A stretch of DNA of 64,000 nt from an uncultured Actinomycetota bacterium (GCA_963770565.1 CAVYQE010000001.1:1184001-1248000), one strand, 5' to 3'. Positions 11,584 to 30,527 are shown, numbered from the stretch's first letter. The notes: generated from the letters alone by a model not told the origin. Numbers and translations are program-made.

Positions 11584-11614
11584 CGCGGCGGCCTGCCTGC
11601 GTGCCTGCCTCGGC

Positions 11615-13824: not shown

Positions 13825-13921
13825 GGAGGTGTCCGGGCACCCGGTGGGCTCCGCCGCCTTCAAAGCGGTTGGTCGTGGCACTCACCACGACGGCGGGTTC
13901 GACTCCCGTCCGCCTCCGCCA
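13825..13921 (+). tRNA. selC: tRNA-Sec (anticodon UCA)
   Basis: 97 nt. Acceptor GGAGGTG/CGCCTCC + G + encoded CCA. CGGT D-loop. Anticodon loop CTTCAAA (TCA at 13860-13862). Long variable arm GTCGTGG/CCACGAC. T-arm GCGGG-TTCGACT-CCCGT. Confidence 0.97.
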
Positions 13922-13947
13922 TCGCGTAGCGGGGGACTGAGCGGTAG

Positions 13948-15596: not shown

Positions 15597-17182
15597 GATT
15601 TGCGCACCTCCCGTAGCACCTCACGTGCACAGTTACGCCCGTTCGCACCCGTGACCCCGCCGCCCGGATGCGTACCTGCGCCACACAGGTAGAGCCGGTC
15701 GATCGGCGTGCGGTAGTCGGCGTAGCCGCGAACCGGACGCATGAACAGCAACTGATCCGGCGACATGTCGCCGTGCAGGTGGTGCCCTCCGGTCAGCGCG
15801 AGCCGGCGCTCGAGGTCGAGCGGGGACAGGATCTCGCGATGAAGCACGGAGCCGGGCAGGTTGGGCATCGACTCCCCGAGGCGCGCGATGACGCGGTCGG
15901 CCACCTGCTCCTTGACGTCGTCCCACGCCGCGTCGTGCAACGTATAGGGCTGCGATCGCACCCCGATCGTCAGCACGTGCTTGCCTTCGGGCGCGAGTGC
16001 CGGGTCGTGCACGGTCGGGATGCAGAGCTCGGCGTGCGCAAGCTCCGCGGGACGACCCGATCGCGCGGCTTCCTGGTCGCGGTCGAGGTCCGCGAGCGGT
16101 TTGGTGAACTGCACGAGACCGCGGTGATACGGCTGCACTCCGGCGTCGCTCGACCCACGCAACCGCGGTAGCTCGGAAACAGCGAGGTTGAGCTTCATGC
16201 TCGCGCCCTCGCAGCGATATGCGCGGACCGCGCCGACGAACTCGCGTGGGAGCTCGGATTCGTGGACCAGGCTCAGGAAGGTTCGCTTCGGGTCGGCGTT
16301 GGACACCACCCGGGCGGCGCCGATCTCCTCGCCGTCCTCGAGCACCACCCCGGTCGCCCGCCCGCCGCGGACCACGATCCTCGCTACCGGAGCGCTGGTG
16401 CGGATCACGGCGCCGGCCTCGCGGGCAGCCTCGGCCATGAGTGCGGTCACGACGCCCATCCCGCCCGGGACGAAGCCCCACCCGAGTCCGCCGCCCGAGC
16501 CACCGGACGCGGCCTCGTGCAGCAGGTTGTACGCCGTACCGGGCGTGGACGGACCGGCGAGGGTGTTGCTGATCGACTCCCAGCCGAGCGCGGACTTGAG
16601 CATCTCGTTCTCGAAGTGCTCGTCGAGGTATCGCTTCGCCGACGTCGTGAACAGGTACGCGGCGTCGACCAGGTCCCGCCGGTGCCCGAAGCCGAGCCGG
16701 CCGTAGCGGGCGAGCGCGCGCAGGTCGTGCAGGGAACACGGTCGCAGGTTCGGCGGCGCCCAGTCGAAGACCGGCATCAGCGACTGCGCGATGCCGGTCA
16801 GCCGCTCCTCGTAGCCGACGAACGCGTCCGCGTCGGCCCGGGACAGCGAGCGGATCTCCTCGACCGTCCGGTGCCGCTCCCCGTGCAGGGTGAAGGTCTG
16901 CCCGTCGGGATAGACGTTCAGCGAAGGTCCCGCCTGGGCGATCCGCAGGCCGCGCTCGCGCAGCCGCAGGTCGGCCCAGACCGGCTCACGCAGCATCGAC
17001 AGGACGTAGGCGCCCGGCGAGGCGTGGAAGCCGGGCGCGAACTCCTCGGTCACGCAGGCCCCGCCGACGATCCCGCGGCGCTCGACCACCAGGGTGCGCA
17101 GCCCGCCGCGGGACAGGTAGAACGCGGCTACCAGGCCGTTGTGGCCGCCACCGACGATCACGGCGTCGAAGGAGGAGTCCAT
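15593..17182 (-). CDS. Phytoene desaturase-like (PYROXD2-like) FAD-dependent oxidoreductase
   Basis: VGGGHNGLVAA, GGACVTEE, GGMG and LYLCGAGTHPGGGVTGANGRNCA motifs. Confidence 0.9.
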   Translation of the reverse strand: MDSSFDAVIVGGGHNGLVAAFYLSRGGLRTLVVERRGIVGGACVTEEFAPGFHASPGAYVLSMLREPVWADLRLRERGLRIAQAGPSLNVYPDGQTFTLHGERHRTVEEIRSLSRADADAFVGYEERLTGIAQSLMPVFDWAPPNLRPCSLHDLRALARYGRLGFGHRRDLVDAAYLFTTSAKRYLDEHFENEMLKSALGWESISNTLAGPSTPGTAYNLLHEAASGGSGGGLGWGFVPGGMGVVTALMAEAAREAGAVIRTSAPVARIVVRGGRATGVVLEDGEEIGAARVVSNADPKRTFLSLVHESELPREFVGAVRAYRCEGASMKLNLAVSELPRLRGSSDAGVQPYHRGLVQFTKPLADLDRDQEAARSGRPAELAHAELCIPTVHDPALAPEGKHVLTIGVRSQPYTLHDAAWDDVKEQVADRVIARLGESMPNLPGSVLHREILSPLDLERRLALTGGHHLHGDMSPDQLLFMRPVRGYADYRTPIDRLYLCGAGTHPGGGVTGANGRNCAREVLREVRKS

Positions 17183-17254: not shown

Positions 17255-17290
17255 TTGACCCCCAATATTGTCAACTGTAGACTGTCAGAC
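17255..17290 (+). promoter_or_regulatory. Sigma70-type promoter of grd operon (TTGACC-N17-TAGACT) overlapped by three tandem TGT-N2/3-AC boxes
   Basis: -35 at 17255-17260 and -10 at 17278-17283. TGTCAAC-TGTAGAC-TGTCAGAC at 17269-17290. ATG at 17292 has no SD, so the mRNA is probably leaderless. Confidence 0.68.
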
Positions 17291-17291
17291 T

Positions 17292-18554
17292 ATGCGAGCG
17301 GAGTACAGTTCTGATCCGCTCGAACTGGCGACGTACGACGTCACGGGCGTCGAGGCCGGCGCCACCAGCACCTGGTCGGACGGCCGGCTGACCCTCGACC
17401 TCGCGGGCATCACCGAGCGCGCCCGGCACCTCGCACCTGCGGTCGCCGAGCTCGCCGTGCGGCTGGTGCATCCGGGGGAACCGGTCCGGATCGCCAACGT
17501 TCTCGATGTGATCGTGCCCGACGTGAAGGCGGCCGATCCCGATGCCACCTTTCCCGGCGTGCTCGGCGCGCTGCGACCGGCCGGACGCGGGCGCACCCAC
17601 CGGCTGGCCGGCCTGCGCGTGCTCACTGTCTGTGACTGGCGCAGCGCCGGGCTGACCACCGACGAGGAGTTTCCCGACTCCTACGTCGACATGGCCGGAC
17701 CCGGTCAGGCGATGACGGCGTGGGGCGCGCACCCGGTGCTGGTCGTGAGCGCCGTTCCGAAGCCGGACGCGGCACTCGGCGATGTCGACCGCTCGTTGCG
17801 CACGGCGGCGCTGAGCGTCGCCCGCGATGCGGCCGCCGCGACGCTGGGGCAACTGCCGAGCCGGGTCGAGTCCTTCGAGCTGCCCGCGGTCGCCGACACC
17901 GACCTGCCGCGGGTCGCGGCGATCCTTCAGGTCGCGTCCGAGGGTCCGCTCGTCGACACGTTCCTCTACGGCGGCGCGGTGTCGACCATCGACCCCACCC
18001 TGTTGGACCACCGCGAGATCCTCGACGGCGCGTTGACCAATGGCGCGTATGACTGGCCGGCGGTCCGCAACCTCACCGCGTCCTACCAGGACAGCGCGCT
18101 CGTCCGCTCGCTGGTCGCGCAACACGGTACGACCTTGCAGTTCGCCGGCGTTGTGCTCGCGCTCGGCTATCTCGACACGAGTATCGAGAAGGAGCACTCG
18201 GCGATGCAGTCGGCGCGACTGTGCCGTCTGCTCGGTGCCGAGGGGGTGGTCTGTACGACGTTCTCCTCCGGCAACTCGCACACTGACACCATGCTCACCG
18301 TGCGTGCCTGCGAGGCCGAAGGCATCCGGGCGGTGGCGATCATCTCCGAGTCCAACGGCGGCCTCACCGATCACGTGCCCGAGGCGGACGTACTCATCAG
18401 CACCGGCAACCACGACGAGCTGGTCGATCCGTGGTTGCCTGAGGAGGTGCTCGGAGCTCCGACTGCGATGGCTGGCGAGCCGGTGCCGTTGTGGTCGTAC
18501 GTCGGTGCGTGCGTGCAGACCGGTGACTTCGACCTGATGGCGGCGCCGGCATGA
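17292..18554 (+). CDS. grdE: Glycine/sarcosine/betaine reductase component B, GrdE/GrdG/GrdI-family subunit (no Cys at the processing site)
   Basis: Family motifs GRGRTHRL, VDMAGPG, LPRVA, DTFLYG, PTLL..EILDGAL, HG..LQFAGV, KE.S...A.L..LLG.EG and GN..TD. Directly upstream of the selenoprotein B gene (ATGA overlap). Symbol denotes the family only. Confidence 0.85.
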   Translation: MRAEYSSDPLELATYDVTGVEAGATSTWSDGRLTLDLAGITERARHLAPAVAELAVRLVHPGEPVRIANVLDVIVPDVKAADPDATFPGVLGALRPAGRGRTHRLAGLRVLTVCDWRSAGLTTDEEFPDSYVDMAGPGQAMTAWGAHPVLVVSAVPKPDAALGDVDRSLRTAALSVARDAAAATLGQLPSRVESFELPAVADTDLPRVAAILQVASEGPLVDTFLYGGAVSTIDPTLLDHREILDGALTNGAYDWPAVRNLTASYQDSALVRSLVAQHGTTLQFAGVVLALGYLDTSIEKEHSAMQSARLCRLLGAEGVVCTTFSSGNSHTDTMLTVRACEAEGIRAVAIISESNGGLTDHVPEADVLISTGNHDELVDPWLPEEVLGAPTAMAGEPVPLWSYVGACVQTGDFDLMAAPA

Positions 18555-19840
18555 CCATCGTCCACTTCCTGAACCAGTTCTTCGCCGGCCTCGGCGGCGA
18601 GGAGGCCGCCGACGTCGCGCCCAGCCGGATCCAGGGACCGGTCGGCCCCGGTCGCGGGCTGGAGGGTGCCGGCCTGCCGATCGACGTCACGATCAGCTGT
18701 GGCGACAACTACTTCGGCGAGCACGAGGCTGCGGCACTCGGCGTGATGCTCGACTGGCTCACCGAGCTCGCCCCTGATGTGCTCGTGTGCGGTCCGGCGT
18801 TCGGATCCGGTCGCTACGGCTACGTGTGCGGCTCGCTCGCCCGCGAGGCTGGCCGGCGCGGCATCCCGGTCGTCACCGGCATGACGCCCGAGAACCCTGG
18901 CGTACTGGCGGCCGACGGTTCGGCGTACATCGTCCCGACCGGACCCAACGTCGCGGGCATGCGGACCGCGCTTCCGGTGATGGCCGACCTCGCCCGGCGG
19001 CTCGCAGCCGGCGACCCGGTCGGTGGGCCGGCCGAGGAAGGCTATCTGCCACGTGGCGTCCGCAAGAACGTCCGCGCGCCAAAGGTCGCCGCCGTGCGGG
19101 CGATCTCCGCGCTGCTCGCCAAGCTCGCCGGCTCGGTGCAGACCGAGGTCGAGCCGGTCGGACGCCCGGTCCCGCCGCCGCCGGCCCTCGCCGATCTCGC
19201 GACCGCGACGATCGCGTTGGTCACCGAGGCGGGCTGCGTGCCGCAGGGCAACCCCGACCGCCTTCCGACCCGGCACTCCAACATCTGGCTGCGCTATCCG
19301 CTCGCCGGGGTCGCATCGCTCGGTGCCGACAGCTACGAGTCCGTCCACGCCGGCTTCGACACGACCGCAGCCAACGACGACCCGAATCGCCTGGTGCCGC
19401 TCGACGCGGCCCGGATCCTCGAGCACGAAGGCCGCTTCGGCCGGATCTACGACTTCTTCTACACCACCTCGGGCGTTGACACTCCCGACGCCACGGCCGC
19501 GAAGTTCGGCCAGGAGATCGCCGCGGAGCTCGTCGCTGCCGGGGTGCAAGGGGTGATTCTCACTGGCACTTGAGGCACCGGCACGCGTTGCGGGGCAACG
19601 CTCGGGAAAGAACTGGAGAGAGCGGGGATCGGCACGGTGTTCATCACGGCGCTTCCATCGATCGCGCAGATGGTCGGTGTGAACCGGATCCTGCGCGGCT
19701 CCGCGATCACCGCTCCGACCGGAGACGCGTCGCTCGCGGCCGCCGACGAGGCGTCGCTTCGGCGTCGGATCGTCGAGCGTGCGCTCGACATGCTGACGGT
19801 CGACGTCGAGCCTCTGACGGTCTGGGACGTGCCCTCTTGA
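18551..19840 (+). CDS. grdB: Glycine/sarcosine/betaine reductase selenoprotein B (GrdB/F/H family), Sec at codon 341 (TGA 19571-19573), 429 aa
   Basis: Starts MTIVHFLNQFFAGLGGEEAAD; contains CGDNYF and GPAFGSGRYG. Read-through gives VILTGT-U-GTGTRCGATLGKELERAGI...VGVNRI...RRRIVERAL, matching the GrdB C-terminus. selABCD are adjacent. Confidence 0.95.
19585..19601 (+). promoter_or_regulatory. SECIS-like hairpin of grdB
   Basis: Perfect 7-bp stem GCGTTGC-GGG-GCAACGC beginning after an 11-nt spacer from the UGA, with G-rich loop. Confidence 0.8.
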
Positions 19841-21147
19841 CCCGTCGCGCCGCGATCCTCAACGCCTCGCTCACTCTTCAGCACGTACCGGACCTCGTGC
19901 GGTACGGCTCGAAACCCAGCCGTGAGCAGGCCCGGATTCCCGACGTACTGAAAGCGCTGCGGTCCTACGACGATGCAGTGGGGTACGCACCGAACCAGGT
20001 GTTCATCGGCAACCTGCCGGTCGAGGAGCTGAACACCCTCGAGCGACCGTGGTGGGGCCGGCACACCGAGGGCAAGCCGGTCGGTCCGACTGGCGAGATC
20101 CTCGAGCAGTCGGCGTTCTACCGCCTGATGGCCGAGCTGGACCAGTTCGACCTGGTCAAGCTCGGCGAGTCGCCGGGTGCGGGCGAGCTTCCGCTCTTCG
20201 AGGGCGCGGAGGTCGTCGGCGCGTTCGCCGGCGCACACGAAGCCGATGAGTCGCTGTCCGCCCAGGTGCTGCTCGAGAACCTCGCCTGCAAGGCCGGCGC
20301 AGTGCATGCGACCCGGTTCATGCTCGCGCAGTCGGGCGTCCACCCGGACTCGGTCTCGTATGTGATGGGCAGCGGCGAGGAGGCGATCGGCGACCGCTAC
20401 CAGCGCGGTGGCGGAGGTCTTGGCAAGTCCGTTGCCGAGGCGGCCGGTCTCGGCCAGGCGAGCGGCAGCGACATCAAGGCGTTCTGCGCCGGGCCTCTGC
20501 ACGCGATGATCCTCGCCGGCGCACTGGTCGAGTCGGGGGTCTACGACCGGGTCGCGGTCGTCGCCGGAGGCGCGCTTGGCAAGCTGGGCATGAAGTTCGA
20601 GGGCCTGCTGTCGCACGGCAGCCCGATCCTCGAAGACGTGCTCGCCGGGATGGCGATCCTGATCGGGGTCGCGGAGGAGCCGGGCCAGCTCGTGCTGCGG
20701 ATGGACGCGGTCGGGCGGCACCGGGTCGCGGCCGGCTCATCACAACAAGCGCTGCTCGAGGACATCGTCGGCGCACCGCTGTCAGCCATGGGCCGGTCGG
20801 TGACCGACATCGAGGTCTACGCGACCGAGCTGCACAACCCGGAGATCACCGAGCCGGCGGGTGGCGGCGACGTACCGAACCGCAACTACCGGATGCTCGC
20901 CGGCCTCGGGATCCTTCGTGGCGAGCTCACGCGCGAAGACGCCGCGCAGTTCGTCGCGACCCACGGACTGCCCGGCTTCTCGCCCACCCAGGGACACATC
21001 GCGTCGGCGGTGCCGTGGATCCCGCACGCCGTCCGTCGGGCGGCGCAGGGCGAGCTCAGAACTACGATGCTGATGGCGAAGGGCAGCCTCTTCCTCGGTC
21101 GCATGACGCGGCTGTGGGACGGGGCTTCGCTCACCGTGGAGGCATGA
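19837..21147 (+). CDS. grdC: Glycine/sarcosine/betaine reductase component C subunit beta (GrdC, FabH/thiolase-like)
   Basis: HVPDLVRYGSKP, LLENLACKA, EEAIGDRYQRGGGG, DIKAFCAGP, KLGM, ELHNPEITEPAG.GDVP..NYRM, PGFSPTQGHI and KGSLFLGRMT motifs. TTG start overlaps the grdB stop (TTGA). Confidence 0.92.
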   Translation: MTRRAAILNASLTLQHVPDLVRYGSKPSREQARIPDVLKALRSYDDAVGYAPNQVFIGNLPVEELNTLERPWWGRHTEGKPVGPTGEILEQSAFYRLMAELDQFDLVKLGESPGAGELPLFEGAEVVGAFAGAHEADESLSAQVLLENLACKAGAVHATRFMLAQSGVHPDSVSYVMGSGEEAIGDRYQRGGGGLGKSVAEAAGLGQASGSDIKAFCAGPLHAMILAGALVESGVYDRVAVVAGGALGKLGMKFEGLLSHGSPILEDVLAGMAILIGVAEEPGQLVLRMDAVGRHRVAAGSSQQALLEDIVGAPLSAMGRSVTDIEVYATELHNPEITEPAGGGDVPNRNYRMLAGLGILRGELTREDAAQFVATHGLPGFSPTQGHIASAVPWIPHAVRRAAQGELRTTMLMAKGSLFLGRMTRLWDGASLTVEA

Positions 21148-21507
21148 ATGGCGATCGACGTGACGGAGGAGACTTTTCCGGCCCTCGTGGAGCGCGGGCA
21201 CGTGCTGCTGGACGTGTGGGGGCCCGACTGTGGTCCGTGCATCGCAATGATGCCGTACGTGCAGACGCTCGAAGAGGAGTACGCCGGCCGGGTCGCGGTG
21301 CTCAAGCTCGAGGCTCCCGAGCATCGCAAGCTCTGTCGCGAGCTGCGGGTCGCCGGCCTTCCGGCGTACATCACCATGCGTGACGGCGTCGAGGTCGAGC
21401 GCGTCACCAGCACCCAGGCGACCAGGGAGAACATCAAGGCCGCCGTCGAACGCCTGCTGGCCGGTGCACCGGCCAGAGGACTTCCCGTTCCCGAACATCT
21501 GCGCTGA
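21148..21507 (+). CDS. trxA: Thioredoxin (Grd-associated type, WGPDCGPC)
   Basis: LLDVWGPDCGPC and GLPAY (cis-Pro) motifs; lies between grdC and grdA. Confidence 0.9.
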   Translation: MAIDVTEETFPALVERGHVLLDVWGPDCGPCIAMMPYVQTLEEEYAGRVAVLKLEAPEHRKLCRELRVAGLPAYITMRDGVEVERVTSTQATRENIKAAVERLLAGAPARGLPVPEHLR

Positions 21508-21526: not shown

Positions 21527-21985
21527 ATGGACCTCAAAGGAAAGAAGGTCATTGCGCTCGGGGATCGCGACAGCGTTCCCGGTGAAGTGATCGCCGCGGT
21601 GGCGGAAGCCGCCGGTGCGGAAGTGGTGGCCCAACGAACGGAGTGCTTCGTTTGAACGGCTTCCGGCGCAATGGATCCGGAAAACCAGGCGTTGATCAAG
21701 CAGCTCGCAGCTGAGCTCGGCACCGAGGATCTTGTTGTCATCCTCGGAGCTGCCGACGCGGAGGCGGTCGAAGTGGCCGCCGAGACGGTGCGAGAGGGAG
21801 ATCCCGCGTACGTGGGTCCGTTGGCCGGAGTCCAGTTGGGACTCCAGGTTCTTCACATCTTCGAAGACTCGATCAAGGAGCAGGTCGAGGGGAGCGTCTA
21901 CGACGAGCAGGTCGGATTCTTCGAGCTGTCTTTCGACACCGAGGCGATCAACGAGGCGATGCGGCGGGCGCGCGGCGAGAGCTAG
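21527..21985 (+). CDS. grdA: Glycine/sarcosine/betaine reductase selenoprotein A (GrdA), Sec at codon 43 (TGA 21653-21655), 152 aa
   Basis: AGGAGGTG SD upstream. MDLKGKKVIALGDRDSVPG...TECFV-U-TASGAMDPENQ...GDPAYVGPLAGVQLGL is the classic GrdA CxxU context. Confidence 0.96.
21661..21682 (+). promoter_or_regulatory. SECIS-like hairpin of grdA
   Basis: TTCCGG-CGCAATGGAT-CCGGAA, a 6-bp stem starting 5 nt after the UGA. Confidence 0.6.
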
Positions 21986-22100: not shown

Positions 22101-23219
22101 GTGTTGGCGGATCAGGATCGACTTCGCAGTGTGATCGACGACGTCGTTCGGCCGCACGCGGCCGATATCGACGTGAACGGCAAGTTCCCGCGCGATGCGG
22201 TGACCGCATTGGGCGAGCAGGGCATCCTTGGCCTGACCATCCCGGCGGATCTGGGTGGAGGTGGCGGCTCCCTGGCGGACGCCGCCGACGTGGTCCGGCA
22301 ACTGGCTGAGGTCTGCGGCTCCACCGCGATGGTCGTGCTCATGCACTACGCGGGCACCGTGCTCATCGACAACCACGGACCCGAGGACGTCCGCCGGGCG
22401 ATCGGCGCGGGTCGGCACTTGACCACGCTGGCGTTCTCTGAGCGCGGGTCGCGCAGCCACTTCTGGGCTCCGCAGAGTATGGCGACCGCGGTCGACCCGG
22501 GCGTGCGTCTCGACGCGCACAAGAGCTGGGTCACCTCCGCAGGCGAGGCGGACAGCTACGTCTGGTCGAGTCGGCCGCTGTCCGCGGACGGCCCGATGTC
22601 GCTCTGGCTGGTCCCGTCCGAGCTGGCCGGACTGACCGTGGGTGGCAGCTTCGACGGGCTCGGACTGCGCGGGAACGGTTCGGTGCCGGTGGAGGCCGAC
22701 AACGTCGTGATCCCGGCGGGCGCCGCGCTCGGCGCGGACGGAGCGGGCTTGGATCTCGCGCTCGCCGAGGTGCTCCCGTGGTTCCTCGTCATGAGTGCGG
22801 CGTTCAGCGTCGGTCTCATGGGTGCGGTCGTGGCCGAGACCGGTGGCCACTTGGTGTCGACCAGGTTGGAGCATCTCGACCAGTCACTCGCCGAACAACC
22901 TCTGACCAGGGTCGATCACGCCCGGATGCGAATCGCGACCGACCAGGCGGCCGCGCTCGTCTCGGACACCCTGACCGCGCTGGCAACGGGTCGCGAGGAT
23001 GCGATGCTGCGGGTGCTGGAGGTCAAGGCCGCGGCCGGCGAGGCAGCAGTGACGGTGACGGACCTCGCGATGAAGATCTGTGGCGGCGCCGCGTTCCGCA
23101 AGGAGCTCGGCATCGAGCGCCGGTTCCGCGACGCGCGAGCGGCCCGGGTGATGGCGCCGACCACCGACGCGCTGCTCGACTTCGTCGGTCGCGCGATCAA
23201 CGGGCTTCCGCTGCTATGA
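22101..23219 (+). CDS. Acyl-CoA dehydrogenase-fold flavoprotein (atypical active site)
   Basis: IPADLGGGG, LAFSE.GS, KSWVTS, GLRGNGS and IERRFRDARA motifs. GGGGAG SD before GTG at 22101. Confidence 0.88.
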   Translation: MLADQDRLRSVIDDVVRPHAADIDVNGKFPRDAVTALGEQGILGLTIPADLGGGGGSLADAADVVRQLAEVCGSTAMVVLMHYAGTVLIDNHGPEDVRRAIGAGRHLTTLAFSERGSRSHFWAPQSMATAVDPGVRLDAHKSWVTSAGEADSYVWSSRPLSADGPMSLWLVPSELAGLTVGGSFDGLGLRGNGSVPVEADNVVIPAGAALGADGAGLDLALAEVLPWFLVMSAAFSVGLMGAVVAETGGHLVSTRLEHLDQSLAEQPLTRVDHARMRIATDQAAALVSDTLTALATGREDAMLRVLEVKAAAGEAAVTVTDLAMKICGGAAFRKELGIERRFRDARAARVMAPTTDALLDFVGRAINGLPLL

Positions 23220-23305
23220 GCGAGTACCGAAGCGAAGCGAAGGTGGCTCGCTCCAATGTGATCAGCGACTCCGCACCGGTGCGCCCGTCAAGGGTGCACC
23301 AGTGA
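23216..23305 (+). repeat. MIRU-like interspersed element carrying a translationally coupled 29-codon mini-ORF
   Basis: Its ATG overlaps the ACAD stop (ATGA) and its TGA overlaps the next GTG (GTGA). It contains CGAAGCGAAGCGAAG. TGAGCGAG occurs at both ends. Confidence 0.65.
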
Positions 23306-24123
23306 GCGAGGTCGTGCTTGGTGCAGTGGCGTACGACGCCAAGGTCGTGACCATCTGGGACGGCTTCCGGCGCTGGTTGCGCGACCATGAGCTGGACCTC
23401 GACTACGTCCTCTACTCGAACTACGAGCGACAGGTCGAGGACCTGGTGGGCGGACGGATCGACACGGCGTGGAACTCGCCGCTCGCCTGGGTCCGGGCCC
23501 GGCGAATGGCGCCGGACGCGCAGGCCGTGCTGATGCGTGACACCGACCAGGACCTGACGTCGGTCGTCGTTGTTCGCTCCGACTCGGATATCGAGTCGGT
23601 CGACCAGATCGAGGGGCGGGTCGTCGCCACCGGCGCGGTCGACTCGCCTCAGGGCACGTTGCTTCCGCTGCAGCTTCTCGGCGACCTCGCGGTCAAGGTC
23701 GACCGCAACGAGGTCGGGGTCGGCCTGCACGGCGACCACATCGGCGGCGAACGTGACGCCGCCCGTGCGCTCGCGGCCGGCGATGTCGATGCCGCCTGCA
23801 TGGTCGACGCCAACCATCTGCTGTTCACCCGGGAGGGCATCCTGCCGTCGAACGGCACCCGGATCATCGCTCGGACCGAGCCGTACGACCACTGCAACAT
23901 GACCGTCATCGGCGAGAGCTCTCCGGCGATGGTGCGGTTCGTCGACCTGCTGCTCGGGATGGACTATGCCGACCCGACCGTCCGCCCGCTGCTCGACCTC
24001 GAAGGCCTGACCCGCTGGCAGCCCGGGCGGGTCAGTGGCTACGCGCAGCTGGAGAACGCGGTCGACCGGCTCGGTTTCTACGACGGATCGGGGCGTGTCA
24101 TCGCTCGTGACTATCGACCGTGA
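23302..24123 (+). CDS. PhnD/SsuA-fold (phosphonate-binding family) protein without a signal peptide
   Basis: YSNYE..VE.L..G.ID.AWN.P, SVVVVRSDSDIES..Q.EG and GAVDSPQG motifs; also HGDHIGGE and YDHCN. No hydrophobic leader or lipobox. Confidence 0.8.
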   Translation: MSEVVLGAVAYDAKVVTIWDGFRRWLRDHELDLDYVLYSNYERQVEDLVGGRIDTAWNSPLAWVRARRMAPDAQAVLMRDTDQDLTSVVVVRSDSDIESVDQIEGRVVATGAVDSPQGTLLPLQLLGDLAVKVDRNEVGVGLHGDHIGGERDAARALAAGDVDAACMVDANHLLFTREGILPSNGTRIIARTEPYDHCNMTVIGESSPAMVRFVDLLLGMDYADPTVRPLLDLEGLTRWQPGRVSGYAQLENAVDRLGFYDGSGRVIARDYRP

Positions 24124-25279
24124 GGTGGATCTCGCCGCCCTCGGCCTCGACGGCGGCGGACATCTGATTCTCGACCGGGCGCTGGCCGGCATGGCGGCCG
24201 GTCAGCGTCTGCGGGTGCGCGGCCGCTCGCCGCACCTGCCGGTCCACCTTGCGGTATGGGCTCGCGCCCGGGGTCACCCGATGGCGGATCCGGACGTGGT
24301 GATTCGCGGCGACGTCGCCGACCGCCGGCTGGCCGGCGCCGAGCGGGCCGGCCAGGTCGACCACGTCGCGGACCGGGCCCCGCGCTCGTGGGGGCTGGCG
24401 GCTCGTGGTGCCCTGGTCGAGTTGGGCGGCCCTCCGCTCGCGCTCACCGACCTCGACACCCGCGACGAGGTGTGGACTGACCTCGCGCCCAAGCTCTACG
24501 CCCGCGCGGCCGCCTCGCAGTGGGACCCGGAGCGGGCCATCGACTGGACGCCGCCGGATCTGCCCGAGGACGTCGAGACCGCCGTCGTACAGCTCATGAC
24601 CTACCTGATCGAGAACGAGCAAGCCGCGCTGATCGTGCCCAGCCGATTCCTGGCCCGGATGCATCCGCACTACCGCGAGTCGATGCAGTTCCTGGCGACG
24701 CAGATCGCCGACGAGGCGCGGCACGTCGAGGTGTTCACCCGGCGCGCGCAGCTGACCGGCCACCCGCTCGGGGTGTCCGGGAGCGGCGGCCGGGCGTCAT
24801 TGCAGACCCTCCTCGACGAGCCCGAGTGGGCGACCGCGTCGTTCCTGCTGTCCGCGCTCGGCGAGGGCACCTTCCTCTCGCTGCTGACCTTCCTCGGCCG
24901 CTGGGCCCCGGACCCGTTGACCGCGCGGATTGCCGCCCTCGTAGTTCAGGACGAGTCTCGGCATGTGGCGTTCGCCCTCGGTCACCTCCGCGAGCACGTG
25001 CGTGCCGATCCCAATCTGCGCGACCGGCTGCGGCTTGCCGTCGAACGCCGGCATGACGCGCTCGCGCACACCGCCGGTCTCGCTCCGCATGTCCACGATG
25101 CGTTGGTCGTCATCGCCGCCGGGTCGTGGGAGCCCGACGCGATCGCCATCGGATGGGAACGGGTCCGCGGGCTCGAGGCGGAGATGGATGAAGGACGCCG
25201 ACGCCGGCTGGTCGGCCTCGGCTTCAGCGATGCGCAGGCGGCGGAGCTCTCTTCGTTGCACAGCCGGAACTTCATGTAG
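24107..25279 (+). CDS. Ferritin-like diiron-carboxylate protein with N-terminal TusA/SirA-like domain
   Basis: Diiron ligand pattern ENE...DEARH...GEG...DESRH. The N-terminus VDL..LG....L..AL..M..GQRLRV.......LAVWA..RGH resembles TusA. Start is 24107 or 24125. Confidence 0.8.
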   Translation: MTIDREVDLAALGLDGGGHLILDRALAGMAAGQRLRVRGRSPHLPVHLAVWARARGHPMADPDVVIRGDVADRRLAGAERAGQVDHVADRAPRSWGLAARGALVELGGPPLALTDLDTRDEVWTDLAPKLYARAAASQWDPERAIDWTPPDLPEDVETAVVQLMTYLIENEQAALIVPSRFLARMHPHYRESMQFLATQIADEARHVEVFTRRAQLTGHPLGVSGSGGRASLQTLLDEPEWATASFLLSALGEGTFLSLLTFLGRWAPDPLTARIAALVVQDESRHVAFALGHLREHVRADPNLRDRLRLAVERRHDALAHTAGLAPHVHDALVVIAAGSWEPDAIAIGWERVRGLEAEMDEGRRRRLVGLGFSDAQAAELSSLHSRNFM

Positions 25280-25287
25280 GCATTGGA

Positions 25288-27087
25288 GTGATGATCGAGG
25301 TCCGCGAACCCGGTACGACGACTGCTGCCGTGCGCGTCGTCGGGACGGCCGGGCATGTCGACCACGGCAAGTCCACTCTCGTGCGGTACCTCACCGGCAC
25401 CGACCCGGACCGCCTCGCCGAGGAGCGGCGGCGCGGCCTCACGATCGACCTCGGCTTCGCGTCGATGATGCTCCCGTCCGGTGTCGAGGTCGGTTTCGTC
25501 GATGTTCCCGGTCACGGCCGGTTCGTCAAGAACATGCTCGCCGGCGTCGGCGCGATCGACGCTTGCGTGTTCGTGGTCGCGGCGAACGAGGGCTGGATGC
25601 CGCAGTCCGAAGAGCACCTGCGGATCCTCGAGCTGCTCGGGATCGCGCACGGGCTGGTGTGCGTCACGAAGGTGGGTCTCGTTGATGACGACGATCTCCA
25701 GCTCGCGCGGATGGAGATCGCCGAGCGGGTAGCGGGGACGTTCCTCTCGGGCGCGGAGGTCGTCGCGGTCGATGTCGAGGCGGGCGTTGGTCTGGACGGC
25801 CCGGAGGGCCTGCGGGCCGCCCTCGAGCGTTTGATCGAGCACACGCCGGCCGCGCCCGACCACGACCGGCCGAGGCTGCACATCGACCGGTCGTTCGCGT
25901 TGGCCGGCGCGGGGACGGTCGTGACCGGCACGTTGACCGGCGGGTCGGTGCGGGTGGGCGACCGGCTCGTGATCGAGCCGGGCGGCACGGCGGTGCGCGT
26001 CCGCGGCCTGCACGGGCACGGCCGAGAGCTCGAGGTCGCGGCGCCTGGTCGCCGCCTCGCACTGAGCCTTTCGGGCGTCGCCCATCGCGACGTACATCGC
26101 GGCCAGGCCTTGGTCCGTGCGGGGCAGTGGCGGCCGACCAAGCGCGTCGACGCTTCGCTCGCGGTGCTGTCCGGCCTCGCGCATCCGGTGACCCGTCGCG
26201 GGGCTTACGTCGCGCACATCGGCGCGGGGGAGTACCCGGTGTCGTCGCTCTCGCTGCTCTCCGGCCGATCGGAGATCGAACCCGGAGACACCGGTCTGGT
26301 CCGGTTGCGCCTGCCGACCGCGCTGCCGCTCGTGCCGGGCGACCGGTACGTGCTGCGCGAGTCCGGTCGCGGCGAGACCGTCGGAGGCGGCGAGATCCTC
26401 GACATCGCTCCGATCCTGCCGCCGTCGAAGGCCGCGCCGAGCCGATCGGTCGAGCGGGTCGTGCGCGAGCGCGGTCACGTCGACGTGGACGAGCTCGAGC
26501 GGCTGACCGGCGTACGGCGAACGCCCAACCTCGGGCATTGGCTGGTCGACGACGCTGCGCTGGTCGCGGCGCGGCGCGCGGTTCGGGCCGCGGTCGACGA
26601 GGCAGAGCACGCGGGGGTCGACCTGGCGGCGCTGACCGAGGTCGAGCGGGCCGCGGTGCCATCGGTGGACGGCATCGTCGTGATCGGCAACACCGTCTAC
26701 TCCGCGGAGATCGCTGCGGCCGGGCCGAGTCATGGGCAGACGGCGTACCTGGCTGCTCTGGAGGCCGCTCCGTTCTCACCACCGCCGCCGGAACGCCTCG
26801 ATCGCTCGGAACTGCGTGCGCTCGAGCGCGACGGGCTGGTCGTGCACAGCGAGGACGTGTGGTTCGCGTCCTCCGCGATCGAGGAGGCGGCGGGCATCAT
26901 CGCCGGCCTTCTTCAGGACAACGACGACGGCTTGACCGTCTCGACCATTCGCGCGGCGCTCGGAACGACCCGCCGGTACGTCGTCCCGCTGCTCGCGCAC
27001 CTGGACTCGACCGGCGTCACCCGACGTCGTGAGGATCGCCGCTTCGCGGGTCCGCGACTGCCCGACCTCGAATCGGAGGCTGAATAG
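25288..27087 (+). CDS. selB: Selenocysteine-specific translation elongation factor SelB
   Basis: GTAGHVDHGKS, DRLAEERRRGLTIDLGF and DVPGH motifs. C-terminal winged helix TRRYVVPLL.HLD..GVTRR. Confidence 0.96.
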   Translation: MMIEVREPGTTTAAVRVVGTAGHVDHGKSTLVRYLTGTDPDRLAEERRRGLTIDLGFASMMLPSGVEVGFVDVPGHGRFVKNMLAGVGAIDACVFVVAANEGWMPQSEEHLRILELLGIAHGLVCVTKVGLVDDDDLQLARMEIAERVAGTFLSGAEVVAVDVEAGVGLDGPEGLRAALERLIEHTPAAPDHDRPRLHIDRSFALAGAGTVVTGTLTGGSVRVGDRLVIEPGGTAVRVRGLHGHGRELEVAAPGRRLALSLSGVAHRDVHRGQALVRAGQWRPTKRVDASLAVLSGLAHPVTRRGAYVAHIGAGEYPVSSLSLLSGRSEIEPGDTGLVRLRLPTALPLVPGDRYVLRESGRGETVGGGEILDIAPILPPSKAAPSRSVERVVRERGHVDVDELERLTGVRRTPNLGHWLVDDAALVAARRAVRAAVDEAEHAGVDLAALTEVERAAVPSVDGIVVIGNTVYSAEIAAAGPSHGQTAYLAALEAAPFSPPPPERLDRSELRALERDGLVVHSEDVWFASSAIEEAAGIIAGLLQDNDDGLTVSTIRAALGTTRRYVVPLLAHLDSTGVTRRREDRRFAGPRLPDLESEAE

Positions 27088-27088: not shown

Positions 27089-28135
27089 ATGACGACCGTG
27101 TCGTCCCCGACCGCAGAGCCGTCGCTGGACCTGACTGATCTCAAGCTGACCGAGTGGACCGCGTGTGGCGGTTGTGCGGCGAAGTGGGGCGGCGCACCGC
27201 TGGCGGACCTGGTCCGCGGCCTGGCTAACGACGCCGAAACGCGCGACCTTCTGGTCGGCCTGGCGCCGTTCGACGATGCCGCGGTCTACCGGATCTCGGA
27301 CGATGTCGCGCTGGTGTCGACGACCGACTTCTTCCCGCCGCTCGTCGACGACCCGGCGGACTTCGGCGCGATCGCGGCGGCGAACGCCTGCAGCGACGTG
27401 TTCGCGATGGGCGGCCGGGTCATCCTCGCGCTCAACATCTCGGCATTCCCGGAGCAGCTGCCCGAGCCGGCGATCGCGGCGATCCTCTCCGCGGCGTCGG
27501 AGAAGGTGGTCGAAGCGGGCGGCGTCGTAGCGGGTGGCCACACGATCCGCTCGACCGAGCCGATCTTCGGCCTCGCCGTGCAGGGCATCGTCCACCCGGA
27601 CCGGATCCTGCGAAAGTCAGGCGCGCAGCCAGGCGATGTTCTCGGGCTGTCGAAGCCGCTCGGTACCGGCATTGTGCTGGCCGGCGGGTCGGCGGAGGAC
27701 AAGGCGGCCGCGACCACCGGGATGCGCGCGCTCAACCGCGCCGCCTCGGAAGCGCTGGCCGACCTGGGCCCGGTGGTGCATGCGCTCACCGATGTCACCG
27801 GCTACGGCTTGTTCGGGCACGCCTTCGAGATCGCCCAGCGGTCGGCGGTGGGCGTGGTGATCCAGGGTTCGGCGCTGCCGCTGTATCCGGGCGCCCGCGA
27901 GGTGGCCGCCGCGGGCGTGCGAACCGGCGGAGATCCGCGCAACCGCAGCTACCTCGCCGGCCACGTGACCTCGCGCGCCGACGAGGCGGTCGAGGCGCTG
28001 GCCTTCGACCCGCAGACCTCCGGTGGCCTGCTCTGCGCGGTGGCGCCAGGGGCAGCTGGCGACCTGGCCGCGATCGGGTTCGAGATCGTCGGCGAGATCG
28101 TCGCGGGACCCGCGATGGTCAGGCTCGAGCCGTGA
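27089..28135 (+). CDS. selD: Selenide, water dikinase (selenophosphate synthetase), Cys form
   Basis: CGGCAAK, DDAAVY, TTDFF.P.VDDP, NA.SDVFAMGG, GGHT, TDVTG.GL.GH and DPQTSGGLL motifs. Confidence 0.96.
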   Translation: MTTVSSPTAEPSLDLTDLKLTEWTACGGCAAKWGGAPLADLVRGLANDAETRDLLVGLAPFDDAAVYRISDDVALVSTTDFFPPLVDDPADFGAIAAANACSDVFAMGGRVILALNISAFPEQLPEPAIAAILSAASEKVVEAGGVVAGGHTIRSTEPIFGLAVQGIVHPDRILRKSGAQPGDVLGLSKPLGTGIVLAGGSAEDKAAATTGMRALNRAASEALADLGPVVHALTDVTGYGLFGHAFEIAQRSAVGVVIQGSALPLYPGAREVAAAGVRTGGDPRNRSYLAGHVTSRADEAVEALAFDPQTSGGLLCAVAPGAAGDLAAIGFEIVGEIVAGPAMVRLEP

Positions 28136-29412
28136 GGCCGCCGTCCGTCGACGCGCTCGCCCGGTCGATCACGGGGGTGGCGCTGCCGGATGCCCTGCTC
28201 GTCGAAGCCGCGCGCGAGGCGATCGCTGCCGGCGATCCCGACTCCGCCCAGCGGCGCGCCGAGGCGATCGCAACCGCGCTGTTGCAGCCGGTCATCAACG
28301 CGACCGGTGTCCTGTTGCACACCAACCTCGGCCGGGCGCCGCTCGCGGTCCGGCAGGAGGCGCGCTACACGAACCTCGAGCTCGACCTCGACTCCGGCCG
28401 GCGCGGCTCCCGGCACGCGCATGCGGCGCGGCTGGCCGCGACGGCGTGCGGTGCCGAGGCCGCGTTGATCGTCAACAACGGCGCCTCCGCCGTACTGCTC
28501 GCCCTCACCGCCCTCGCAGCCGGACGACGGGTGCTGGTGAGCCGCAGCGAGCTGGTCGAGATCGGCGGCGGCTTCCGGATCCCCGACGTGCTGCGCGCCT
28601 CGGGTGCCGAGCTGGTCGAGATCGGTACGACGAACCGCACCCGGAAGTCCGACTACGAGTCAGCCGCGGTCGGCGCAGACGTCGCGCTGATCCTGAAGGT
28701 GCACCAGTCCAACTTCCGGATCCAGGGCTTCACGGAGTCGGCGACCCTGGCTGAGCTGGCGACGCTCGGCCCGCCGGTCGTCTACGACATCGGGTCGGGA
28801 CTGCTGGATGCCGCGACGCCGTGGTTGCCTGGTGGGCCGCCGCCCTGGCTTGCGGATGAGCCGGCCGCGCGCCAGTCGCTCGCTGGGGGCGCCGCGCTCG
28901 TGACGTTCTCCGGCGACAAGCTGCTCGGCGGGCCGCAGGCCGGCGTGATCGCCGGCGATGCGGAGCTGATCGCGCGGTGCAGCCGGCATCCGCTTTACCG
29001 CGCGTTGCGGCCCGGACAGCTGGTCTTGTCCGCGCTGCAGGACGTGTTCCTCGCGTACCTGCGCCGTGACCCGGCCGCCATCCCGTTCTGGGCGATGGCG
29101 TCGCTGACCGCCGACGAGCTCCTCGAGCGGGCGCGCGCACTCGGCGTCGGCGAGCCGGTCCGGTGCGAGTCGGTCGCGGGCGGCGGATCTCTGCCTGGCT
29201 TGACGATTCCCTCGGCCGGCGTTGCGATCGACGGCGATCGAACTGCGGCGCTGCGGCACGGCGCAGTGCCGGTGATCGCCCGCGTCCACGCCGGGCGCAC
29301 CGTGTTGGACCTGCGGACGGTCGCCCCCGCGGACGACGTCGTCGTCAAGTCCGCGGTGGCGGCCGCTCTGCACTCCGACACCGACCCTGCCACTGACACT
29401 GGGGGAGCCTGA
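28132..29412 (+). CDS. selA: L-seryl-tRNA(Sec) selenium transferase
   Basis: VINATGVLLHTNLGRAP, NLELDL..G.RGSR, EIGGGFRIPD, GTTNRT and FSGDKLLGGPQAG (PLP Lys) motifs. Confidence 0.96.
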   Translation: MRPPSVDALARSITGVALPDALLVEAAREAIAAGDPDSAQRRAEAIATALLQPVINATGVLLHTNLGRAPLAVRQEARYTNLELDLDSGRRGSRHAHAARLAATACGAEAALIVNNGASAVLLALTALAAGRRVLVSRSELVEIGGGFRIPDVLRASGAELVEIGTTNRTRKSDYESAAVGADVALILKVHQSNFRIQGFTESATLAELATLGPPVVYDIGSGLLDAATPWLPGGPPPWLADEPAARQSLAGGAALVTFSGDKLLGGPQAGVIAGDAELIARCSRHPLYRALRPGQLVLSALQDVFLAYLRRDPAAIPFWAMASLTADELLERARALGVGEPVRCESVAGGGSLPGLTIPSAGVAIDGDRTAALRHGAVPVIARVHAGRTVLDLRTVAPADDVVVKSAVAAALHSDTDPATDTGGA

Positions 29413-30527
29413 TGGGACCGGTCGTTCGCGTCGAGGTCATGGCGGTCGGACCGTCGATGCCGCCGGTGCAATACACGGGTACTGCGCCGCCGGCGCTCGA
29501 CACGATGACGCTCGTCGTGCTGACCGACGAGGACGGCACGGTCGGCATGGCGAGCTACGACGCGGACAGTTACGACCATCACGACCTGGCCTCGATGGAG
29601 GCGCTGCGCGCGCCGGCCCGCGCAGTGCTCGGCCAGGATCCGCTCGACCGGTTGCGGATCGGCGCGGAGATCGCCGCGCTGCGACCGACGCCGGTGACCG
29701 CACCAGGGCCGGTGTCGGCGATCGAGACGGCATTGTGGGACCTCGCCGCCAAGGCGGCGAACCAGCCGCTGTCCCGTTACCTCGGCGGCGCCCGCGACCG
29801 CATCCCGGGGTATGCCTCGCTTCCGGTGTGCGACACCGTCGACGGCTGCCTCGAGCTGGTCGGCGAGGCGCAGGCAGCCGGTTTCGGTTGCGTGAAGCTG
29901 CACGTGTCCGGCGACCCGCGCGCGGACGCGGTCCTCGCCGAACGGGTGCGGGCCGCCTTTTCCGACCTCGAGGTCATGTGGGACGCCGAGGGCGTCTACG
30001 ACCGGCCGGGTGCGGCGTACGTCGCGGCCGCGCTGGACGCGATCGAAGCGCGTTGGTTCGAGGCGCCGCTGCCCGACCAGGACCTGTCCGGCTATCGGGA
30101 GCTTCGCCGGCGCTTCGGCGTGCCGCTGATTCCGGCCGGCGACTTCTTCTGGGACCTCCGCGCGCTCGGCGAGGTGCTCCGCGACCCGCCCTGGGATGCG
30201 ATCCGCTCCGAGGCCAGCGCGGGCGGCGGGATCGGCTACCTGGTCCGGCTCGCCGGGCTGGCCGAGGCCTTCGGCCTGCAGACCGAGCTCGCCACCTATG
30301 GCTTCGGGTTCACGCAGGCGGCCAACCTGCACGTGATGCTCGGCCTCGGCAGCGGAAGCTACTTCGAGCAGCCGTTCCCGGCCGAGCCGTGGACCTTCGG
30401 GCTGAGCGACCCGTATCCATTCGGGTACGGCGCTGAGTACCACGCGCCGGACGCGCCGGGCCTCGGCGTACCCGTAGATCTCGCGTTGATCGAGCCAGCG
30501 GTGGTGGCGAGGTTCGTCGTCCAATAG
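29412..30527 (+). CDS. Mandelate racemase/muconate lactonizing enzyme (enolase superfamily) protein
   Basis: IETALWDLAAK, LGG.RDRIP.YAS, VKLH, WDAE, WFEAP and PDAPGLG motifs. TGATG-coupled to selA. Confidence 0.88.
   Translation: MGPVVRVEVMAVGPSMPPVQYTGTAPPALDTMTLVVLTDEDGTVGMASYDADSYDHHDLASMEALRAPARAVLGQDPLDRLRIGAEIAALRPTPVTAPGPVSAIETALWDLAAKAANQPLSRYLGGARDRIPGYASLPVCDTVDGCLELVGEAQAAGFGCVKLHVSGDPRADAVLAERVRAAFSDLEVMWDAEGVYDRPGAAYVAAALDAIEARWFEAPLPDQDLSGYRELRRRFGVPLIPAGDFFWDLRALGEVLRDPPWDAIRSEASAGGGIGYLVRLAGLAEAFGLQTELATYGFGFTQAANLHVMLGLGSGSYFEQPFPAEPWTFGLSDPYPFGYGAEYHAPDAPGLGVPVDLALIEPAVVARFVVQ

Follow-up and report, generated by a model that had tools for sequence, protein, structure and literature searches.

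A conserved three-gene operon beside selB-selD-selA as a likely unrecognised selenium-handling pathway

In the Dsz system, DszC has an acyl-CoA dehydrogenase (ACAD) fold and DszB a binding-protein fold with a catalytic cysteine, and the chalcogen is freed from an organic compound. Carbon–phosphorus bonds are cleaved by PhnZ, a di-iron oxygenase of the HD-domain type, and by PhnJ, a radical S-adenosylmethionine (SAM) C–P lyase, while ArsI cleaves carbon–arsenic bonds. How bacteria, notably aerobic ones, acquire reduced selenium and deliver it safely to selenophosphate synthetase (SelD) is still unsettled. Here, we describe a module of three genes, hereafter the trio, in a 64,000-nucleotide stretch of DNA from an uncultured Actinomycetota bacterium (GCA_963770565.1 CAVYQE010000001.1:1184001-1248000). 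The whole stretch is referred to as the window, and positions are counted from its first letter. The genes encode a flavoprotein of the ACAD fold, a cytoplasmic PhnD-fold protein that resembles solute-binding proteins (SBP-like protein), and a protein with a TusA-like domain and a di-iron domain (di-iron protein), and they run into selB, selD and selA. The trio is likely an unrecognised selenium-handling pathway.

Accessory selenium genes have been sought before by comparative genomics. In the accessible part of the survey by Lin et al. 2015 (PMC5322559), YedE, YedF and LysR_Se, as well as DUF3343, are selenium candidates on the basis of their co-occurrence and clustering with selD, selA or selB. 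The paper contains neither 'phosphonate' nor 'ferritin', and none of its three uses of 'dehydrogenase' in the accessible part concerns acyl-CoA dehydrogenase. Likewise, the trio does not appear in the accessible text of PMC5322559, PMC5029168, the selenoneine preprint (bioRxiv 10.1101/2022.04.13.486033), the preprint on selenoprotein families (bioRxiv 10.1101/2022.07.06.499078) or the review of soil selenium (PMC11422209). We found no description of the trio in connection with selenium in the literature, survey supplements, which possibly list selD neighbours, aside.

Conservation of the operon and its link to selenium genes

We searched representative genomes, one for each species, using an alignment of the di-iron protein. 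At least 569 relatives were obtained, and the best 80 loci were analysed together with their 10-kb flanks. These loci span Actinomycetota, Acidobacteriota, Chloroflexota, Myxococcota, Planctomycetota, Bdellovibrionota and Latescibacterota, and also include alpha-, beta- and gamma-proteobacteria. The ACAD, SBP-like and di-iron genes followed one another in the same order and on the same strand in 71/80 loci, and five of the other nine were cut by a contig end. Four loci carried only the SBP-like and di-iron genes, one of them contig-cut (L058) and three without an upstream ACAD match (L063, L073 and L086); five carried only the di-iron gene, four of which lay at a contig start, leaving L107 as genuinely devoid of the others. 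When 5,481 open reading frames (ORFs) from the flanks of the 80 loci were clustered all against all, no other family went beyond 12 loci once antisense shadows of the trio were set aside. The next commonest neighbours were selA (12 loci), FdhA (in two pieces), FdhB, selD, selB, cytochrome b and FdhE, and scattered generic ABC ATPases and a class-V aminotransferase were also frequent. The trio is a self-contained conserved operon. In metagenomes, the best 120 homologues were at least 64% identical.

The trio lay within 10 kb of selA, selB or selD in 16/80 loci, in several gene orders; by a rough estimate, three genes would lie this close to a randomly chosen gene about 1% of the time when the genome measures several Mb. 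In some of these loci the trio is inserted inside the sel operon itself. Two Variovorax species and a Rubrivivax metagenome-assembled genome (MAG) have the order selA, ACAD, SBP-like, di-iron, selB (L075, L096 and L089), and Microtetraspora has selD, the trio in the usual order and selA (L034). In Parafrankia and two Streptomyces loci, the sel genes are upstream of the trio (L044, L056 and L067). In two other Streptomyces loci (L048 and L060), a class-V aminotransferase of the NifS/selenocysteine (Sec) lyase type comes immediately after the trio, and next are a split FdhA, FdhB, selA and selB. Samples taken later added further trios adjacent to sel genes (G004, G984, G1057 and G557).

Two loci showed departures from the common layout. 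In a genome of the same genus as the window (L003, G004:C3:205136-207600), the di-iron orthologue lies directly beside selA and is split over three frames, in pieces of 61%, 51% and 61% identity, which reflects gene decay or indel errors in this 55%-complete assembly. In a Chloroflexota locus (L144, G763:C29:259000-270000), the order is SBP-like, di-iron, ACAD; the di-iron protein is 37% identical, and selA is present.

The link to selenium was also evident at the level of whole genomes. We scored selA (model TIGR00474) and selD against their cut-offs in the 80 carrier genomes. The selA gene was above its cut-off in 46/50 and 25/30 carriers, 71/80 in all, and contig-end fragments of selA in two more (G067 and G135) raised this to 73/80. 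Six of the seven carriers without selA hold selD above its cut-off, G114 having neither, so that 79/80 carriers have selA or selD. Proximity did not account for this association, as 57 of the 64 carriers without a sel gene inside 10 kb have selA elsewhere in the genome.

Profiling of genome sets that include non-carriers gave a similar picture. Among 61 relatives of the window genome, selA was found in 29 at E ≤ 1e-30, and the true di-iron orthologue occurred in three (G000, G004 and G026), all with selA; the remaining matches belonged to a paralogous di-iron family. Of 201 Streptomyces genomes (seed G069), 36 have selA and six carry the di-iron gene, five of these six with selA. With the seed excluded, selA was present in 4/5 carriers versus 31/195 non-carriers, and the trio was found in only 1/165 selA-negative genomes. 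In a Burkholderiales family (201 genomes, seed G104), all five carriers have selA, versus 50/201 genomes overall, or 4/4 carriers versus 45/196 non-carriers with the seed excluded. A class sample of Actinomycetes contributed three more complete trios (G481, G398 and G557), and two additional carriers (G873 and G745) came from a sample of Chloroflexota; each of the five has selA. Pooled over the unbiased samples without seeds, selA accompanied the trio in 13/14 carriers, versus 18% of the Streptomyces and 25% of the Burkholderiales family genomes overall. For comparison, the Sec trait is given for 21.5% of bacteria in the accessible part of PMC5029168. The co-occurrence with selenium genes recurs in separate phyla and with differing gene orders.

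Thus, by its co-occurrence with sel genes and its recurrent adjacency to them in unrelated lineages, the trio falls into the operational class of selenium-utilisation accessory genes. A preliminary description of the window, made from its sequence alone, had proposed phylogenetic profiling of the trio against the sel genes and would have been contradicted by a trio residing mostly in selenium-free genomes, which is not what we observed. The tie to selenium metabolism that it drew finds strong support in 79/80 carriers with selA or selD, 16/80 sel-adjacent loci and 13/14 carriers in unbiased samples; as to the particular functions that it listed, the data are compatible with supply, repair or recycling. 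A functional tie between the trio and the use of selenium is, in our view, very probable.

In the window (GC about 0.69; nearest protein homologues with Acidimicrobiales names), the tRNA for Sec, a glycine/sarcosine/betaine reductase (grd) cluster, the trio and selB-selD-selA form a selenium island of roughly 16 kb (Table 1), with some 3.3 kb between tRNA-Sec and the grd cluster downstream of it. The ORFs of the trio extend over 22077/22101-23219, 23302-24123 and 24035-25279 on the + strand. The likely ACAD start is GTG 22101, preceded by GGGGAG, and that of the SBP-like gene is GTG 23302. For the di-iron gene we chose GTG 24107, which gives a product of 390 residues, because the N-termini of its homologues begin M-x-T-D-x-E-V-D-L. 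From this start, the gene overlaps the end of the SBP-like gene (stop codon 24121-24123) by 17 nt, and the gap from the di-iron gene to selB is 8 nt (25280-25287). Thus, the three genes, their places and the 8-nt gap were as described earlier, whereas the tight coupling asserted for the whole series applies to two of the three junctions, the ACAD and SBP-like genes being 82 nt apart. The GC content at third codon positions (0.86-0.88 in the three ORFs) resembles that of the neighbouring genes. A scan of 13.5-31 kb for promoters and terminators returned a single candidate of each kind, neither count exceeding what shuffled sequence would give, and was uninformative on the operon limits.

Table 1. 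Features of the selenium island in the window, with the evidence for each assignment.
Feature	Position	Strand	Evidence
tRNA-Sec (selC), anticodon TCA	13825..13921	+	ARAGORN
GrdE-like proprotein, glycine/sarcosine/betaine reductase component B	17268..18554	+	Pfam Gly_reductase 232 bits
GrdB-type selenoprotein B	18551..19840	+	Pfam GRDB 367 bits; TGA=U translation
GrdC, component C beta subunit	19850..21147, start approximate	+	NF040746 504.8 bits, cut-off 450
Thioredoxin	21148..21507	+	Pfam Thioredoxin
GrdA selenoprotein A	21527..21985	+	Pfam GRDA 121 bits; TGA=U translation
Trio gene 1, ACAD-fold flavoprotein without catalytic glutamate	22101..23219	+	Three ACAD Pfam domains
Trio gene 2, cytoplasmic PhnD-fold (SBP-like) protein	23302..24123	+	Pfam Phosphonate-bd 102 bits
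Trio gene 3, TusA-like/di-iron protein	24107..25279	+	Pfam AurF 33.2 bits, alignment, AF2 model
selB	25288..27087	+	TIGR00475 291.9 bits, cut-off 242
selD	27089..28135, start = first ATG past selB stop	+	TIGR00476 334.5 bits, cut-off 125
selA	28132..29412	+	TIGR00474 385 bits, cut-off 268

The grd cluster encodes GrdE, GrdB(Sec), GrdC, thioredoxin and GrdA(Sec), and no GrdD, the alpha subunit of component C. In-frame TGA codons are read as Sec in grdB (19571-19573, U341, in a UxxCxxC context) and in grdA (U44 of the translated stretch, in a CxxU motif). The GrdE-like protein also scored 149 bits with a GrdG-like NCBIfam model, under the cut-off of that model. It had been suggested that the trio might replace the missing GrdD of the glycine/sarcosine/betaine reductase, and indeed the GrdD model NF040747 had no match anywhere in the 94.9%-complete window genome (G000). 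Only 1/80 trio loci (L073), however, has grd genes nearby, and the Variovorax and Streptomyces carriers hold the trio beside fdh and sel genes instead. On this adjacency we rejected substitution for GrdD as the general role of the trio, and we regard it as extremely improbable.

In the L073 locus (3825-15830), which belongs to an Actinomycetota MAG, the SBP-like and di-iron genes come without a detectable ACAD gene; grdA, thioredoxin and grdB lie upstream of them in divergent orientation, and selD, selA and selB follow the di-iron gene. At the other end of the window island, an enolase-superfamily (MR_MLE) gene (29412-30527, +) begins at the stop codon of selA. This gene is possibly transcribed together with the sel genes; the conserved neighbours in the 80 trio loci do not include it.

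Anatomy of the three proteins

The first protein has the three-domain ACAD fold, with PF02771, PF02770 and PF00441 at 70.3, 42.4 and 61 bits, each above its cut-off, and its best sequence matches in the Protein Data Bank (PDB) are short-chain acyl-CoA and butyryl-CoA dehydrogenases (E about 1e-27). The VMAPT of this protein aligns with IYEGT in a butyryl-CoA dehydrogenase of solved structure, alanine thereby taking the place of the catalytic glutamate, as the preliminary description had proposed. At the alternative position, which we take to be that of the isovaleryl-CoA dehydrogenase-type catalytic glutamate in helix G, an alignment by eye of 67 homologues revealed no conserved glutamate: the residues P234 and F236 do not vary, and conservation does not extend to E231. 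Judged by alignment, the protein thus appears to lack the catalytic glutamate of canonical acyl-CoA dehydrogenases at both positions. With NF049984, the model of the Rv1679/FadE16 family, it scored 393.4 bits, below the cut-off of 600, which places it, though related, outside that family.

The second protein has the PhnD fold, as indicated by PF12974 (102 bits) and by a Foldseek match of its AlphaFold 2 (AF2) model to 7s6g (E 8e-22, template modelling (TM) score 0.68). The model itself has a predicted local distance difference test (pLDDT) value of 94.9, and its top matches are PhnD, PtxB, HtxB, the arsenite-binding AioX and the arsenate-binding ArrX. The protein falls outside three described subfamilies: it scored 43.6 bits with the PhnD equivalog model TIGR03431 (cut-off 261), 204.6 bits with the Rv1680 family model NF049985 (cut-off 400) and 71.7 bits with TIGR04553, a putative selenate ABC transporter SBP (cut-off 250). 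The last of these is the best-scoring named transporter subfamily, though far under its cut-off. Residues G141, H143, G144, D145, E150, H197 and C198 are invariant in sets of 22 and 75 homologues. The HGDHIGGE and YDHCN motifs of this protein, as well as VMAPT in the ACAD and DEARH and DESRH in the di-iron protein, were all found as claimed before.

The SBP-like protein shows no signal peptide, judged without a predictor: the first strand of the model begins at residue 3, and all homologues start there. This agrees with the earlier proposal of a signal-less protein that has no permease or ATPase partner. No PhnC/PhnE-type partner or other transporter gene is conserved near the trio in the 80 loci, and ABC ATPase ORFs were found in only eight of them, at scattered positions. 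The alignments of trio homologues (67, 75 and 71 sequences) contain no in-frame stop. We rejected a selenoprotein form of the trio; a TGA flagged in the SBP-like match of G763 lies outside the aligned region (4-259), and the conserved cysteine there is a cysteine.

The third protein consists of a TusA-like N-terminal domain (residues 1-67), a conserved linker (70-130) and a ferritin-like domain (135-389). Residues 1-67 form a confident small alpha/beta domain in the AF2 model. Pfam TusA (PF01206) was not matched in the window protein at E ≤ 0.01; it is recorded on the homologues P0041, P0052 and P0111, and on 42% of members of an ESM Atlas cluster. Apart from AurF and TusA domains, the Atlas clusters hold solely proteins named hypothetical. 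TusA carries a conserved persulfide cysteine in its N-terminal loop, where the di-iron protein has glycine: its loop, LGLDGGGH, has invariant G12, D14, G16 and H18 and no cysteine. A TusA-like domain is thus present, as had been suggested, whereas the cysteine of the usual persulfide carrier is absent, and the domain would therefore not act as such a carrier. The linker is highly conserved, with R73, R79, A80, G81, W94, R99, G100 and P108 invariant, and has no confident fold (pLDDT < 50).

Pfam AurF (PF11583) was matched by the di-iron protein at 33.2 bits, just above the cut-off of 29.6, which assigns it to this family, and no model of NCBIfam release 20.0 was reached. The ligand residues E168/E170, D201, E202, H205, E252, D281, E282 and H285 do not vary among 16 sequences, and each of the two E...ExxH ligand sets has DEARH or DESRH as its second half. 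The two DExRH motifs had been taken for those of a di-iron protein, which is supported by their conservation and by the ferritin-like fold found by AF2 and Foldseek. The profile of the protein was also compared with the PDB. Foldseek matched the bundle to R2lox, aldehyde-deformylating oxygenase (ADO) and the azoxy synthase VlmB at 15-21% identity and E 3e-5 to 3e-4, the best TM scores being 0.54/0.64 to 6d9f_B.

A paralogous ferritin-like protein, about 34% identical over di-iron residues 165-300 (e.g., G000:C2:93769-94161), is found in nearly every genome of the family to which the window genome belongs, whether selA is present or not, and constitutes a separate family.

A sister system and the proposed function

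A sister trio is known in NCBIfam under Mycobacterium tuberculosis names: Rv1679 (ACAD), Rv1680 (SBP-like) and Rv1681 (radical SAM), with models NF049984, NF049985 and NF049973. In both systems an ACAD-like gene and a signal-less PhnD-fold gene are followed by a gene for a radical-chemistry enzyme. The Rv1679-type ACADs are 44-48% identical to that of the window, and Rv1680 and the window SBP-like protein have in common the invariant residues Y11, W57, R79, D80, D82, D114, S115, H143 and G144, as well as D145, E150, H197, C198, E234, G235 and W239. They differ in the third gene, which encodes a radical SAM enzyme in place of the TusA-like/di-iron protein, and in one motif, HGDTGxSE in Rv1680 versus HGDHIGGE in the window, H146 being specific to the window type. 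In the literature searched, mentions of Rv1679 and Rv1680 were confined to listings of proteomic and annotation data, and those of Rv1681, also called MoeX, to biomarker papers.

The SBP-like model separated the matches in a class sample of 251 genomes into two score classes (420-495 and 225-243 bits), with nine genomes, G370 among them, above the cut-off. Four sister loci have the ACAD, SBP-like and radical SAM genes and no di-iron gene within about 6 kb. In a quick maximum-likelihood (ML) tree of 89 SBP-like sequences, the window protein and Rv1680 fell into separate deep clades with 100% SH-aLRT support. The sister system shows no selenium link in Actinomycetes; in Chloroflexota, counter to this contrast, two genomes with an SBP-like and radical SAM pair both have selA.

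These observations bear on the possibility that the trio has no selenium-specific role and is an ordinary oxidative catabolic or cofactor module that moves along with sel/fdh islands and serves, for instance, formate dehydrogenase (FDH) or the supply of molybdenum cofactor. FdhA, FdhB, cytochrome b and FdhE do recur beside the trio along with sel genes, the sister system in Actinomycetes is untied to selD, and Rv1681 bears the historical name MoeX in literature listings. Hitch-hiking on islands, however, fails to explain why most carriers without a nearby sel gene have selA elsewhere (57/64) or why the trio is so rare in selA-negative Streptomyces (1/165), and the selenoproteins neighbouring the window trio are GrdA and GrdB rather than FDH. 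We therefore hold a role unrelated to selenium to be highly improbable.

The partners of the SBP-like protein are exchanged between the two systems. Eight proteins (P0122 and seven others) are fusions of an SBP-like part, 53-57% identical to that of the window, with an Rv1681-like radical SAM enzyme; in L145, an ACAD gene precedes such a fusion. In the quick ML tree, these fusions nest within the di-iron-linked SBP-like clade, and the di-iron-linked proteins of L109, L110 and L144, whose genomes all have selA, group with the Rv1680 clade. As both partners occur in both deep clades, the di-iron and radical SAM enzymes were swapped more than once. Such an exchange would be the pattern expected of O2-dependent and O2-independent enzymes for one step. 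ACAD and SBP-like parts are fused as well, in P0129, P0135, P0138, P0139, P0141 and P0142, while the similar P0121 looks like a deletion or assembly artefact. A metagenome scan with the SBP-like–radical SAM fusion revealed no sel genes in 42 loci at the thresholds used.

The fusions could also be read in another way, with the SBP-like protein as a scaffold or substrate whose Cys198/His197 site is modified or loaded by the flavoprotein and the di-iron or radical SAM enzyme, yielding a protein-bound selenium carrier or cofactor for the Sec machinery or selenoproteins. The radical SAM partner, after its own family, resembles next the peptide- and cofactor-modifying maturases WgkB, StsB, MftC and AhbD in NCBIfam; the linker of the di-iron protein is conserved but unfolded in the model, as would be expected of a segment folding on a partner; and C198 is invariant. 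The fusions to radical SAM and ACAD domains suit the channelling of a small-molecule substrate equally well, though, and at least one ACAD fusion (P0121) is the apparent artefact mentioned above. Modification of the SBP-like protein itself is accordingly quite improbable in our view.

Rv1681-like radical SAM genes occur in other contexts too. Such genes, with 57-73% identity to the fused form, are found on their own in L132-L143 and L147-L185, that is in many Chloroflexota genomes and metagenome contigs, with no ACAD or SBP-like neighbours. A metagenome contig (L158:660-7149) carries a radical SAM/SPASM gene, an ACAD gene of the selenium-linked type (55% identical), a gene for a DinB_2-family protein in place of the SBP-like one and an Rv1681-like radical SAM gene, followed by genes for NUDIX and DoxD-like proteins, a DUF2064 protein (TIGR04282-type, arsenosugar-named) and a GT2 glycosyltransferase. 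The same spacing of ACAD, gap and radical SAM was seen in L146, L151 and L163. P0132 (513 aa) is a window-type SBP-like protein fused to a domain resembling the TIGR04282 arsenosugar-biosynthesis glycosyltransferase (166 bits, cut-off 134). The gene content of L158 hints that such variant clusters may be tied to organo-metalloid sugar chemistry.

We propose, tentatively and with somewhat less than even confidence, that the trio is an oxygen-dependent cytoplasmic pathway that releases selenium from a small selenium compound, or hands it over, to SelD. The PhnD-fold protein would hold a small selenium-containing ligand in its cleft; the fold family of this cleft binds phosphite, hypophosphite, methylphosphonate, arsenite and arsenate, and the cleft would be remodelled by the invariant H143, D145, E150, H197 and C198. 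The ACAD-fold flavoprotein would carry out a non-canonical flavin reaction, such as an oxygenation or a desulfinase-type elimination, because the proton-abstracting glutamate is absent. The di-iron protein would then perform an O2-dependent oxidative cleavage, for which a radical SAM enzyme would stand in the sister and fused forms, and the freed selenium would pass to SelD, possibly via C198. As to the direction of the pathway alone, supply or salvage for SelD is a possible reading that we likewise hold short of even confidence.

Alternatively, the trio might act downstream of SelD or parallel to it, and bind and oxidise, or shield, selenide, selenophosphate or free Sec in aerobic Sec users, for detoxification or recycling. 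Both redox proteins are of an oxidising type, one having a di-iron oxidase/oxygenase fold and the other being a flavoprotein without the dehydrogenase base. The carriers are mostly known aerobes (Streptomyces, Micromonospora, Variovorax, Paraburkholderia, Myxococcota and Acidobacteriota), and a restriction to genomes with selD or selA would suit a substrate present only in such cells. Selenophosphate, moreover, would be one of the phosphite-like anions that the SBP-like fold binds. On the other hand, selenium toxicity also confronts organisms that do not use selenium, so that pure detoxification would not be expected to track selA, and a placement between selA and selB (L075, L089 and L096) suits a biosynthetic helper better. 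We judge such handling of reduced selenium to be unlikely.

Several observations weigh against supply of selenium to SelD, or against the link to selenium as such. Every chemical step is read from the anatomy of the proteins, and the operon has neither an importer for organoselenium nor a reductase. The ACAD-fold protein scored higher with models of acyl-CoA enzymes (AcrC, 109 bits; 3-sulfinopropanoyl-CoA desulfinase, 94.5) than with those of S-oxygenases (SfnB, 70; DszC, 45.9), and by these scores appears nearer to true acyl-CoA enzymes. The invariant residues of the SBP-like protein are largely acidic (D80, D82, D114, D145, E150 and E234), which would suit a cation or an amine better than an oxyanion. 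Only 3/10 Actinomycetes genomes with the sister system have selD, and as that system has the same invariant residues, the core chemistry need not be specific to selenium. Two carriers, G114 and G247, have neither selA nor selD above the cut-off, the latter being a Streptomyces genome with a selD match of 87 bits. In the profile as a whole, relatedness makes genomes non-independent, and incomplete MAGs account for several of the carriers. Finally, 26/29 relatives, 31/36 Streptomyces and 45/50 members of the Burkholderiales family with selA do without the trio, which is therefore accessory and dispensable for Sec synthesis rather than part of the core machinery.

Comparison with described systems

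With near-exclusive occurrence alongside selA or selD and three soluble proteins, the trio offers a directly testable hypothesis. It is widespread, with the relatives found spread over species-representative genomes, and its carriers include genera that can be cultured and are genetically tractable, among them Streptomyces, Micromonospora, Variovorax and Paraburkholderia. It also provides a first functional handle on the uncharacterised Rv1679-Rv1681 of M. tuberculosis, with which it has an invariant site in common; Rv1680 is so far called a putative component of a phosphonate transporter by structure matching in the accessible part of PMC8562490.

Among selenium candidates, YedE, YedF and LysR_Se, along with DUF3343, are similarly accessory and were found by the same kind of comparative evidence, and YedF has a TusA/SirA-like fold (PMC5322559, accessible part). 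They belong to protein families unrelated to those of the trio, in which the TusA-like domain has no cysteine. The di-iron domain resembles R2lox, ADO, AurF and VlmB in its four-helix bundle and two E...ExxH ligand sets; the trio protein differs by its unique N-terminal TusA-like domain and by a conserved linker, and the fold indicates no substrate.

Like the Dsz system, the trio combines a non-dehydrogenase flavoprotein of the ACAD fold with a cytoplasmic partner of a binding-protein fold that has an essential-looking cysteine and histidine. There is no homology past the superfamily, however: the match to the DszC model NF043015 (cut-off 850) covers residues 44-223 only, and DszB was not among the listed structural matches of the SBP-like protein. 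The trio also has no DszA-type partner, as no conserved neighbour of the luciferase-like monooxygenase (LLM) type was found, and has a di-iron protein instead. Hence, the parallel with Dsz drawn in the preliminary description stands as an analogy of logic and falls as homology.

The systems for phosphonates resemble the trio in joining a PhnD-fold binder to an enzyme that breaks one difficult bond, be it a di-iron enzyme that depends on O2 or a radical SAM enzyme. PhnD, in contrast, is periplasmic and feeds an ABC importer, whereas the SBP-like protein has no signal peptide; PhnZ is an HD-domain protein, whereas the di-iron protein is ferritin-like; and the trio is linked to sel rather than phn genes. 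It is conceivable, though rather unlikely, that the trio represents the first dedicated enzyme pathway that cleaves or converts a small organic or oxyanionic selenium compound within the cell for SelD, with an O2-dependent (TusA-like/di-iron) and an O2-independent (radical SAM) form, and a fourth class of selenium-utilisation genes. If so, it would be for selenium what the PhnZ/PhnJ and ArsI chemistries are for phosphorus and arsenic, and hundreds of aerobic species of soil and fresh water would possess it.

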